A stretch of DNA of 64,000 nucleotides, taken from assembly GCF_030013595.1 (NCBI RefSeq), contig NZ_CP122772.1. The stretch is one strand, 5' to 3'. Within the stretch, counting starts at the first letter, position 1. The number at the start of each line of letters is the position of its first letter. Below are positions 33,001-36,000 of this stretch, one piece after another. Made by a program: the position numbers. The DNA comes from Escherichia coli. GTDB taxonomy: Bacteria; Pseudomonadota; Gammaproteobacteria; Enterobacterales; Enterobacteriaceae.

Positions 33001-36000
33001 TGTATCACATCCGCAGCAATGCGGCTCATCTCTGCCAGTAACCACCGGTTGTGGAACACCAGGGACCAGTACTGGCAGGGAAGTGTGAACACAATATGCT
33101 GCCACGGACAGTCGGGAACCAGACTCAGCAGATACTGTATCCACTGTGCGCCAGCCTTCACTCCGCAGTGCGGGCAGGAGCGACTTTTACACCGGAAGCA
33201 GACCTTTTTTGTGTGGCAACAGTCCGGAGATGAACAGCACCACTGTGTGTACCCCATCAGCGTGGTTCCGCACGCCATGATTTTTGTCACCGACTCAATG
33301 ACTACCGGACGCACTGAACCTTCCGGTTGTTTCTCCAGCCAGTTAAGCCAGCGGTTTCCCTGCTGAAAAATGTCGGCAAAACGGGGAAGCATCAGAAGGG
33401 CGGGGGGACTCCGTCCGGCCAGTGAACCGTGCCACACTCCGGGCAGTACATGCCGCCGGCGCTGATACCGGCAAGAATGGTCGCAAACTCCCGCTCCGTG
33501 CAGCGGGCTATTTCAGGATACCCTTCGTCATCGACACGAACAAACCAGAAGACCAGCTTTTTGTTTCCGGCATCCACAAAGAAGGGAATATTCAGGTCTG
33601 CGCAGCACTCAACGGCATCGTCAAAATTATCAAAGCGCAGAGCTTCTGCGTCTTCTTCGTCAAAGAAGTCATCGTCGTGAAGCTTCACGACATAGCGGGG
33701 AAGTTTGCTTCTTTGAGGGGCAGGTTTTCGTTTACGGGGTTTAGCTGAACGGGACATATAACTACCTGAAAGACAATGATATTGTCTGTTTTTATAACGG
33801 TAATTTCAGGCCATGACAAGCCGCAGCCGCCAGGCTGCCTACTCGGTTTTTCTTATCTCTACACAACAGAAAGGCGAATGAACAATCCTGTCAGTGGCTC
33901 ACAGCGTATTGGTCGTATCAGCACAAAGGAGCGGGAAAACGTGGGATGGCTGAAACGGCGTCTGTTTTATTACACCACACCCGGATTTTCTTCGCTGCTG
34001 GCTCTGCATAAGGGGCCGCGACTGACTGCTGACTAAGCATGGGGGACTCCGATGAACATACTGTATACCGAATCCTCTCCAAATATTGGCGGGCAGGAAC
34101 TGCAGGCTATTGCCCAGATGTGTGCCATACGGCGGCTGGGGCATCAGGTGATGCTGGCCTGCCGCGAACACAGCAGGATTACCCCCAAACGAATCGGAAA
34201 ATCGATACTGGAAAAACTCTAACTCGGTGGCCAGTTTTTGTTGACCACTTCATTCAGTGCAGAACGTGAAGGTGGTGCACTGACAGAAGTTGCGTGCTGG
34301 GCCCATGCCCGGCGAAAAATCCACGATGTATACATCAGCAGCAAAAGTGCGACGGCAGAAGAAGCCCTGAAGCGAATCAGTGAACTGTACGCCATCGAGG
34401 ATGAAATACGGGGATTACCGGAGTCAGAGCGTCTTGCCGTCAGGCTGCAGCGAAGCAAAGTGAATGAATAGATGGTGGAGAAGAATGGTACGCTGTCGAA
34501 AAAATCCAGACTGGGCGAAGCGTTCAGCTATGTACTGAATCAGTGGGATGCCCTCTGTTATTACAGTGATGACGGTCTGGCGGAGGCGGATAATAATGCT
34601 GCGGAAAGAGCGCTTCGTGCAGTCTGTCTCGGAAAGAAAAACTTTATGTTCTTTGGTAGCGATCACGGCGGCGAGCGTGGAGCACTGTTGTACGGGCTGA
34701 TCGGCACCTGCCGTCTGAACGGTATCTGATCCGGAAGCGTATCTGCGCCATATCCTGAGCGTACTGCCGGAATGGCCTTCCAACCGAGTTGATGAACTCC
34801 TGCCATGGGACGTAGTACTCACCAATAAATAAGCGTCAATACGGTGCTCCGTTGACGCTTACGAGCATCTTCATCTTATTACCGAAAATTTAGTACATTA
34901 TGCAAATTTTCAGCCCCGCAATTGAGAGCAACTTCAGCAGCCTTGCCGCTTAATGATGCCCTTGAAACATCGCGGAAAATCCAATGCCGACCTCATGAAT
35001 ATAACAGTGGAATACAGCCGAACGAATCGGTTAACAGATACTGGGGACAATCAAAATTGTATCCCATTTCTGTTGACCACAACAGACCTTTATTCTTGTT
35101 TTTTTGACTGTGTTGTGGACTGTACTGCAATGTTCCTTTCAGCAGAAAAATTAATATCAGAGTAATATTTTGAATGTTTTATTAGCTAATTGTGCATGCA
35201 TCAGTCGCAATTGCACGATTAGCTAATGCAAGGGGCGCACTAAAATATGAATATAAAAGAGCAGCTATGCCAGCCTGTAGTTATTTATATTTCTGCAGGC
35301 AGGGCAGGGCTGCGCTTATATAAGTTATAGCTCAAACGCTAAAACAGAAAAACGCGCCACACCAAATTAGGTTGTCAGTTGATGGGGGGGCTTATAGCTT
35401 TCACATTGCGTGTGGAGTGGTGACAATAAAAGTATCTTGAGGTCATTAATCGTGAAAAGACTAGTGTTTATTTCTTTTGTTGCGCTGTCCATGACAGCGG
35501 GTTCCGCAATGGCTCAGCAAGGGGATGTTAAATTCTTTGGTAGCGTATCAGCAACTACCTGTAATTTGACACCACAAATAAGTGGCACTGTAGGAGATAC
35601 CATTCAGCTTGGTACTGTTACACCAAACGGAAGTGGTATTGAAATTCCTTTTGCACTGAAGGCTTCTTCAACTACTGGCGGTTGTGCTTCCTTGTCCAAT
35701 AAAACAGCTGATATAACTTGGAGCGGGCAGTTAACCGAAAAAGGTTTTGCTAATCAAGGGGGAGTGGCAAGAGATTCATATGTTGCTCTGAAAACCGTGA
35801 ACGGTAAAACACAGCCGGCGCAGGAGGTTAAGGCGTCGAATAGCACTGTAAATTTCGATGCATCAAAAGCAACTACGGAAGGTTTCAAATTTACTGCTCA
35901 ACTGAAAGGTGGTCAAACCCCGGGTGACTTCCAGGGGGCAGCGGCTTACGCGGTTACTTACAAGTAATCATTCCCCCCTTATCCGGTAGCAAGCTACCGG

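Follow-up and report, generated by a model that had tools for sequence, protein, structure and literature searches.

What lies between an IS91-family insertion sequence and the F18 fimbrial operon of a porcine ETEC/STEC plasmid, how did it come to be there, and does it have any function? The plasmid carries both F18 (fed) and alpha-hemolysin, and the window analysed here is a 64,000-nucleotide stretch of Escherichia coli contig NZ_CP122772.1. Within this window, the region at 33846–34862, which is 100% identical to NZ_CP122592.1, holds four remnants, bordered on one side by IS91 copy C, whose terIS end is at 33845, and on the other by the region upstream of fedA. Non-IS DNA (34863–35451, plus strand) follows in the PGAP annotation, and fedA, the gene for the F18 major fimbrial subunit, starts at 35452, about 590 bp beyond the remnants. 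Our data indicate that the stretch is very probably a scar zone without function that lies upstream of the F18 operon and records a series of mobile-element events, with the history reconstructed below.

Scar regions left by insertion sequences are routinely found beside the virulence operons of IncF-type plasmids; this stretch is an ordinary scar region of that known kind. Three of its four remnants are already public as pseudogenes: on the identical record NZ_CP122592.1, the RefSeq (PGAP) annotation places a polysaccharide deacetylase, a GT1 glycosyltransferase and an IS66 transposase, all as pseudogenes, between IS91 and fedA. A literature search found no prior description of this junction in F18 plasmids, and insertion sequences at fed are not a topic of the paper from which the ETEC strains come (PMC10151945). 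The sequence-only reading had described a patchwork of gene remnants at 33846–34850. The start of this range is the first base after IS91 copy C, but its end is 12 bp short, as the IS66 repeat extends to 34862. Both of the pieces that were named in it are real, but the shf 3′ end (33846–34036) and an ISEc52-like piece (34176–34252) were missed.

Composition of the stretch

The leftmost remnant (33846–34036, plus strand, 191 bp) consists of the last 63 codons and the TAA stop of a shf-type polysaccharide deacetylase gene, as determined by alignment and in line with its PGAP pseudogene, and it was cut off by the IS91 insertion at 33845/33846. Its 64-aa reading matches the C-terminus of intact Shf from plasmid pE94-5 (284 aa, Pfam Polysacc_deac_1) at 97% identity, Ecf1 of pO157 at 83%, and Shigella Shf/SfPgdA at 79%. 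The next remnant (34052–34180, plus strand, 129 bp) was identified by alignment as the first 43 codons, from the ATG, of a capU-type GT4 glycosyltransferase gene. The first 43–44 residues are approximately 91% identical to the N-terminus of intact pE94-5 CapU (383 aa), and the identity to Shigella CapU/SfGtr4 and pO157 Ecf2 is 56–59%. At the DNA level, intact shf-capU loci match the two remnants over 330 bp at 95.5% identity (E = 1e-145), and the nearest intact relatives at this identity are found on bovine and environmental E. coli chromosomes and on pE94-5.

The gene order is the same as in shf-capU-virK(-msbB2) of EAEC plasmid pAA2, SfpgdA-Sfgtr4-virK-msbB2 of Shigella pWR100, and ecf1-ecf2 of pO157, and, as in the shf-capU-virK loci and in pE94-5, a short spacer separates the stop of the deacetylase gene from the start of the glycosyltransferase gene. 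Compared with the pO157/Shigella locus, however, the stretch represents a divergent allele with approximately 70% DNA identity. Loci of this type function in envelope modification (PMC7355660). With only 191 bp and 129 bp left of such a locus here (63 of the 284 codons of Shf and 43 of the 383 codons of CapU), no enzyme can be made. The virK gene (DUF535), which follows capU in these loci, is absent from the window; its 5′ fragment is present in the sister plasmid pEC556_2, where capU runs on past 34180 in register with pE94-5. From the remnants it is evident that a shf-capU-virK-type locus was once present on F18 plasmids.

Neither the 64-aa nor the 56-aa translation gave a Pfam match when scanned alone, as both lack the length that these models need; the short fragments were identified by alignment to intact homologues. 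This silence of Pfam is the one observation that would fit the refuting case raised in the sequence-only reading, namely that the fragments are chance ORFs with no significant hits. This explanation was rejected and can be regarded as practically excluded. The alignment places a deacetylase (Polysacc_deac_1) gene followed by a GT4 gene, as in the adjacent intact genes of pE94-5, whose products match PF01522 (Shf) and Glyco_transf_4 plus Glycos_transf_1 (PF13439/PF00534; CapU), and the DNA identity given above is accompanied by 91–97% protein identity to these intact genes. The BLASTX search that had been proposed as a check matched the tnpC and glycosyltransferase fragments far beyond chance, and the IS66 pieces pass the Pfam thresholds unaided.

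The 57-codon ORF that had been likened to a glycosyltransferase N-terminus (34052–34222, plus strand; 56 aa and a stop) proved to be a chimera based on the ORF list, alignment and frame analysis. The likeness holds for its first 43–44 residues (91% identity to the pE94-5 GT4), whereas after 43 capU codons the remaining 13 codons and the stop come, out of frame, from an ISEc52-like scrap, and the alignment to CapU homologues is lost past ...REHSRI. This scrap is all that is left of an ISEc52-like element of the IS3 family, namely its final 77 bp (34176–34252, plus strand), with the last 22 orfB codons and the right inverted repeat, ending in ...CACTTCA. CP100015.1 has a 1,249-bp IS3-family element whose left end reads TGAAGTGGCAC... 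and whose right end matches the scrap at 100% identity; copies annotated as ISEc52 match it at 93–97%. The TG...CA terminal repeats of the IS3 family and the orfB C-terminus were both recognised, the latter as the tail GLPPNESENRYWKNSNSVASFC followed by a stop in frame 0. The first five bases of the scrap (34176–34180, GGATT) are the microhomology at which the deletion joined it to capU.

The remainder of the stretch (34253–34862, plus strand, 610 bp) is the 3′ end of an ISEc23-like IS66-family element and spans tnpC from about codon 327 to its end together with the right terminal inverted repeat. The tnpC 3′ fragment with stops that had been noticed from the sequence alone was confirmed by blastx, in which 34253–34726 and 34728–34832 matched residues 327–489 and 490–524 of a 523-aa IS66-family TnpC. 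Both frame pieces also matched the DDE_Tnp_IS66 domain (PF03050, E = 5.2e-15 and 3.3e-19), covering positions 145–206 and 218–283 of the 284 in the profile. From 34253 to 35400, which runs beyond the end of IS66 into the DNA upstream of fedA, the identity to the ETEC4073 copy (ISEc23-like per PGAP, with a near-complete tnpC) is 97.4%. This comparison with another IS66 copy, also proposed earlier, reveals an in-frame TAG stop (34469–34471, plus strand; TGG in ETEC4073) and a 15-bp gap. An extra T at 34727 (plus strand) causes a +1 frameshift and creates a TGA at 34727–34729; it is absent from pEC556_2.

Terminal inverted repeats of the IS66 family begin with GTAAGCG, and one such repeat, GTAAGCGTCAACGGAGCACC, was found on the minus strand at 34843–34862 (...CGCTTAC at the right end) as the sole copy in the window. 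A search of the whole window for the left repeat with its 8-bp duplication (GAGCATCT plus GTAAGCG) gave only a 2-mismatch chance match, and nothing in the window pairs with the right flank, gagcatct, the left end being lost. Compared with an ISEc23-like IS66 element (tnpA-tnpB-tnpC), the remnant keeps roughly the C-terminal third of TnpC and is without tnpA, tnpB, the 5′ part of tnpC and the left repeat. Because only the right 610 bp are left and these carry a stop, a frameshift and the 15-bp gap, the IS66 piece cannot transpose and is a remnant and not a functional member of the family.

IS91 copy C and the breakpoint in shf

The element that borders the remnants, IS91 copy C (32018–33845, minus strand), is intact according to self-BLAST, its end sequences and PGAP, and is itself not counted among the remnants. 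By self-BLAST, the window holds six IS91-family copies of two types that are approximately 90% alike; copy C is 100% identical to 56616–58443 and is a variant with about 90% identity to the canonical-type copies of the same window. The right flank of copy F, judged by eye, is presumably a conjugative-transfer (traB-like) coding sequence and seems unrelated to the left flank of copy C. IS91 is known as an element with orf121 and tnpA and a rolling-circle HUH transposase, and in copy C orf121 (33392–33757) and tnpA (approximately 32250–33437) likewise overlap on the minus strand.

Cleavage of IS91 at terIS occurs at 5′-CTCG on the orf121 side, while oriIS lies adjacent to a 5′-CTTG or GTTC target, and no target duplication arises (PMC13181058). 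The terIS end of copy C (...CCTACTCG at 33845) carries CTCG, and its oriIS end at 32018 is preceded by cttg (32014–32017); the comparison covered the end sequences of all six copies. In the intact shf gene of pE94-5, the position corresponding to the breakpoint reads ...GAACTTG/GTTTTTCTTATC, where the slash marks the breakpoint. Since CTTG stands immediately 5′ of it, IS91 entered shf directly after its target tetranucleotide.

How the 5′ part of shf was separated from the 3′ part is a different matter. The DNA on the oriIS side of copy C is an unrelated IncX1 backbone with 99.5% identity to a Salmonella IncX1 plasmid, and no shf 5′ sequence was found on that side. Among the plasmids compared, the identical terIS-shf′ junction occurs with three oriIS flanks that differ from one another, each of which is occupied in the window by a resident IS91 copy (C, E and A). 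Homologous recombination of IS91 by IS91 predicts exactly such a pattern, and it is the most likely route by which the 5′ part would have been removed.

Alternatively, the remnants could be passenger DNA, in which one-ended transposition of IS91 past terIS carried shf′-capU′ and the DNA beyond, possibly including the fed operon, into an IncX1-type backbone. Read-through at terIS mobilises flanking DNA at a frequency of 1–10% (PMC13181058), and the remnants abut precisely this end of copy C. The canonical CTTG at oriIS within the unrelated IncX1 backbone, as well as the missing shf 5′ sequence across IS91, would also fit with such an event. We nevertheless consider it unlikely, as each of the three oriIS flanks of the junction is the flank of another resident IS91 copy, and the far end of the cargo, joined to the continuation of the IncX1 backbone, was not found. 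This continuation past the CTTG at 32014–32017 (AATATCCATAGG..., also AATATCCATAGGATATGGGC...) was searched for in the window and in 100 kb of NZ_CP122592.1; as it is absent from both, one-ended transposition and IS91 recombination are not separable by that route.

Sister plasmids contain four independent IS91 junctions at canonical tetranucleotides upstream of fedA. Taken together, the sister plasmids illustrate cleanly, in a natural setting, how IS91 chooses its target (CTTG/GAAC) and how its copies serve as portable homology by which virulence modules are reshuffled. As a tentative and rather speculative extension, the few hundred bases upstream of fedA may be a recurrent landing and breakage zone for IS91 across F18 plasmids, so that IS91 recombination or one-ended transposition could move fed (with hly) between IncF and IncX backbones. 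If this is true, the shf-capU-virK vestige would mark the origin of the module on a plasmid with an envelope-modification locus of the EAEC/Shigella/EHEC type.

The 15-bp gap and the reconstructed history

The junction between the IS66 end and the fedA upstream region is common to all seven F18 plasmids that were fetched besides the identical record, while leftward of 34463 these plasmids vary freely, with IS2, IS91, IS1203 and deletions into IS91. The 15-bp gap at 34462/34463, seen relative to other ISEc23-like copies in the ETEC4073 alignment, coincides with the point of IS2 insertion in sister plasmids. IS2 is complete at that point in pP136-5, and is truncated with a shared right junction in pEC556_2, pUMNF18_87, ETEC4068 and ETEC4077. 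The pP136-5 sequence equals that of the window plus 1,334 bp at 34462/34463, made up of TTAC and IS2 minus its last base.

The gap probably marks the loss of the IS2 copy that is still present in pP136-5, although the window contains no sequence of IS2 (IS3 family) beyond possibly one base. An independent small deletion together with a C-to-A point change would be the other way to produce it. The proposed excision junction has neither microhomology nor a target duplication, and decaying IS copies often suffer small deletions; nearby, ETEC4073 carries an 11-bp duplication of its own. This second explanation is possible but the less convincing one, as the gap falls, to the base, where IS2 is inserted in five sister plasmids, includes the 12 bp that are already missing beside IS2 in pP136-5, and is followed by an odd base (A, 34463) that matches the terminal base of IS2. 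In addition, the gap allele is confined to this plasmid lineage: at 100% identity it occurs in only 21 plasmids, all pig-derived or of unstated source, while more than 1,300 other ISEc23-like copies retain the 15 bp.

The serial insertions and deletions that had been proposed for this junction are supported by sister plasmids that preserve intermediate states and display individual events: pEC556_2 without a 1,530-bp deletion, pP136-5 with the complete IS2, and ETEC4073 with the near-complete tnpC. The pEC556_2 sequence matches the window at 100% up to 34180, continues for 1,530 extra bp, and rejoins at 34176–34306. The extra DNA consists of the continuation of capU, the 5′ part of virK, and 553 bp of the ISEc52-like element with the same right junction; the virK′/ISEc52′ junction is itself a truncation. 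Although pEC556_2 escaped the 1,530-bp deletion, its IS2 is truncated and it lacks 156 bp of IS66 kept in the window, so that no sampled plasmid is a direct ancestor. We infer a common ancestor, and the order of some of the steps below is not fixed by the sampled plasmids.

In the reconstructed order, an ISEc23-like IS66-family element first lay upstream of fedA, as its right end and junction in all seven sisters show. An ISEc52-like IS3 element then inserted into tnpC at 34252/34253, where two intact termini abut, with a shf-capU-virK locus of the EAEC/Shigella/pO157 type on its left, as seen in pEC556_2. IS2 inserted farther 3′ in tnpC at 34462/34463, as sister plasmids show, and the IS91-family element entered shf at its canonical target right after CTTG; the shf 5′ part was then most likely separated through homologous recombination between resident IS91 copies. 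Comparison with pEC556_2 shows that a deletion of 1,530 bp, running from capU codon 43 as far as the final 77 bp of the ISEc52-like element, took place at a GGATT/GGGTT microhomology and removed the remainder of capU, virK′ and the bulk of that element. IS2 was probably lost together with 4 bp of flank, which would leave the 15-bp gap and one IS2-derived base. Point damage, namely the TAG stop and the +1 T, completes the series.

Function and use of the junctions

The Rfam scan of the stretch gave no family match, and the promoter and terminator scan gave no excess of motifs in it. One promoter-like match lies inside the stretch; the scanned region as a whole contains 2, against a mean of 2.3 in shuffled sequence. 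Based on the disruption of the genes and the lack of motifs, nothing suggests any function of the stretch. Conceivably, part of the patchwork, such as the end of IS66 or the chimeric ORF, could have been co-opted as a promoter or regulator of the fed operon, given its position approximately 590 bp upstream of fedA and the retention of the right junction in 7/7 sister plasmids. Such co-option is very improbable: common descent explains the conservation of that junction, everything left of 34463 varies freely among the F18 plasmids, and the single promoter-like match comes from a scan whose count did not reach that of shuffled sequence. The scar region matters little in itself. Its junctions at 33845/33846, 34180/34181, 34252/34253, 34462/34463 and 34862/34863 are lineage markers for the typing of F18 plasmids.

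Composition of the remnant stretch

The remnant region at 33846-34850, upstream of the F18 fimbrial gene fedA, is already annotated as pseudogenes in public records. In the identical RefSeq record, PGAP lists three of these: a polysaccharide deacetylase without its N-terminus, a GT1 glycosyltransferase without its C-terminus, and an IS66 transposase. The translated deacetylase piece (33846-34036) is 97% identical to the C-terminus of the intact Shf of plasmid pE94-5, compared with 83% for pO157 Ecf1 and 79% for Shigella Shf/SfPgdA. This piece, as well as an IS3-family piece at 34176-34252, was absent from the sequence-only reading, which had likened a 56-aa ORF (34052-34222, 57 codons with the stop) to a glycosyltransferase N-terminus. 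The ORF is present, and over residues 1 to 43-44 it shares 91% identity with the N-terminus of an intact GT4 glycosyltransferase of 383 aa. However, its last 13 codons are the ISEc52-like IS3-family scrap read in the wrong frame, and the ORF is therefore a chimera. The scrap consists of the last 77 bp of the element (orfB tail and right repeat, with the family-typical ...CA end). It matches a 1,249-bp element in CP100015.1 at 100% identity and copies annotated as ISEc52 at 93-97%.

The deacetylase and glycosyltransferase remnants are those of an shf-capU locus. The pair corresponds to the deacetylase-glycosyltransferase(-virK-msbB2) cluster of EAEC pAA2 and Shigella pWR100, and ecf1-ecf2 of pO157 (gene functions of such clusters are described in PMC7355660), but the allele in the window is divergent: its DNA is approximately 70% identical to that of pO157 and Shigella. 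The nearest intact relatives, matching at 95.5% over 330 bp (E = 1e-145), are in bovine and environmental E. coli chromosomes and in pE94-5, in which virK comes next after shf-capU. In the pE94-5 locus (L003, 8607-10435), an IS91 copy breaks virK near its 5' end; the PGAP 'VirK' CDS there begins within the IS91 terIS end and is an annotation chimera.

The proposed IS66-family tnpC 3' fragment with stops is real. Its two ORF pieces match Pfam DDE_Tnp_IS66 (E = 5e-15 and 3e-19) and correspond to residues 327-524 of TnpC, with a 523-aa transposase as reference; the fragment contains a 15-bp gap at 34462/34463, a TAG stop at 34469-34471 and an extra T at 34727. The match that includes it spans 34253-35400 and shows 97.4% identity with a copy named ISEc23-like by PGAP. 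The terminal repeat ends at 34862, 12 bp past the end first assigned to the stretch, while the start holds: IS91 copy C ends at 33845, so the stretch begins at the very next base, 33846.

All pieces are decayed remnants of well-known families (IS66/ISEc23-like, IS3/ISEc52-like, shf-capU), and the tested features of intactness were lacking in each. Shf retains 63 of 284 codons and CapU 43 of 383; in both IS fragments the transposase is broken and one end is missing. The stretch had no Rfam family match and no enrichment of promoter-like or terminator-like motifs, and by these measures (intactness, Rfam, motifs) no function was found for it.

IS91 entry into shf and proposed exchange of flanks

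Self-comparison of the window revealed six IS91-family copies of two types that are approximately 90% alike, with copy C (32018-33845) identical to copy E (56616-58443). Intact shf reads ...GAACTTG|GTTTTTCTTATC at the breakpoint, and the terIS end of IS91 (...CCTACTCG) is directly joined to GTTTTTCTTATC in the window. The oriIS end of IS91 inserts next to 5'-CTTG or GTTC, and terIS is cleaved at 5'-CTCG (PMC13181058); this rule holds for every IS91 copy in the window except copy E, whose oriIS is preceded by GTCC. Given this rule, the CTTG in shf indicates that IS91 entered the gene at a canonical target.

The oriIS side of copy C is IncX1 backbone that ends in CTTG and contains no shf sequence. 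The same terIS-shf' junction was found with two further oriIS flanks in sister F18 plasmids: in pEC556_2 with the IS1/hly flank that adjoins copy E in the window, and in pP136-5 with the flank that adjoins copy A. Because one junction thus occurs with different oriIS flanks of resident copies, the arrangement is taken as evidence that homologous recombination among these copies reshuffles the flanks. One-ended transposition from terIS could also explain it, but is less supported.

Other F18 plasmids also have IS91 junctions of independent origin at canonical tetranucleotides within this small region: oriIS|GAAC at capU codon 2 in ETEC1716, oriIS|GAAC in the 5' part of IS66 tnpC in ETEC4073, and terIS joined to IS2 directly after an internal CTTG of IS2 in ETEC4077. 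The sole constant junction among the F18 plasmids compared is that between the IS66 end and the fedA upstream sequence (34862/34863). Such constancy is predicted by common descent and gives no ground for proposing a function for the scraps.

Two copies of different type (approximately 90% identity) stand head-to-tail without spacer at 56616-58443 and 58444-60272, the terIS CTCG of copy E continuing straight into the oriIS ATCGAT of copy F, an arrangement compatible with the use by IS91 of another copy's terIS CTCG as a target-like site. Similar tandem or triple arrays occur in ETEC4077 and NZ_CP122592.1. Near tpx, on the downstream side of the fed operon, a partial copy occupies 44187-44940; it consists of the 754 bp at the oriIS end and has cttg in front of it.

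Deletion and probable loss of IS2

The proposed patchwork of serial insertions and deletions next to IS91 was supported, and is extended by the entry into shf and by a 1,530-bp deletion relative to pEC556_2. This plasmid matches the window perfectly as far as 34180; its next 1,530 bp, missing from the window, comprise more of capU (which lacks an internal segment present in pE94-5), then the 5' part of virK and lastly 553 bp of the ISEc52-like element, and the match resumes at 34176-34306. Since these 1,530 bp are present between matching ends, the window is the deleted form. The junction has GGATT/GGGTT microhomology.

pP136-5 has the sequence of the window with 1,334 bp more at 34462/34463, namely TTAC and IS2 minus its final A, and the IS2 right junction is common to pEC556_2, pUMNF18_87, ETEC4068 and ETEC4077. 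The simplest reading is that the window descends from an IS2-bearing form that lost IS2 imprecisely. The 15 bp are kept in the uninterrupted IS66 sequence of ETEC4073 and in more than 1,300 other ISEc23-like copies; 100% matches to the gap allele are confined to 21 plasmids, which come from pigs or have no stated source. That the gap arose as an independent deletion rather than by IS2 loss is considered less likely.

In three F18 plasmids, IS2 is cut at one internal point (|TATGGGCGCTGCTTCGCAGACAGG; L002 8996, L011 2110 and L010 3295, IS2 position = L009 4391). The left partners are IS66 at window-equivalent 34306, IS91 at +250 bp and IS91 at +775 bp, with 2-6 bp of microhomology at the junctions. 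A shared endpoint of this kind suggests either a hot spot for deletions or a series of them.

Plasmid setting and possible mobility of the fed/hly module

Positions 33700-35400 of the window match plasmid NZ_CP122592.1, from the porcine ETEC strain ETEC6335, at 100% identity. In PLSDB, a further 17 E. coli plasmids associated with pigs match at 99.2-99.9%; the segment is near-complete in eight RefSeq complete genomes. Downstream of the remnants lies the F18 fimbrial operon fedA-C-D-E-F. A hairpin-forming segment upstream of fedA (35251-35323) gave sub-threshold Rfam matches to unrelated microRNA families (E = 0.015-0.06); most likely these arise by chance from a palindrome in the promoter region of fed.

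Upstream, the intact copy C is followed by an IncX1-type backbone with dinQ and AgrB sRNA, a recombinase and ddp. This backbone (27200-32017, also encoding DUF6685 and MipZ-like proteins) shares 99.5% identity with plasmid pSA02DT09004001_37 of Salmonella Heidelberg. Within it, at 31496-31583, AgrB, the antisense sRNA of the type I toxin system dinQ, scores 70 bits. Combined with the IncF tra and hly segments of NZ_CP122592.1, a close relative, the IncX1 flank suggests a multi-replicon mosaic.

Copies C and E form direct repeats bracketing approximately 22.8 kb that hold shf'-capU', the fed operon, tpx, hlyCABD, IS3 and IS1. In pEC556_2, the two outer flanks of the module are linked through one IS91, an arrangement predicted for the module's circular excision product or for a cointegrate precursor. 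IS91 targeting, recombination or read-through at the remnant zone may move the fed/hly module between plasmid backbones.
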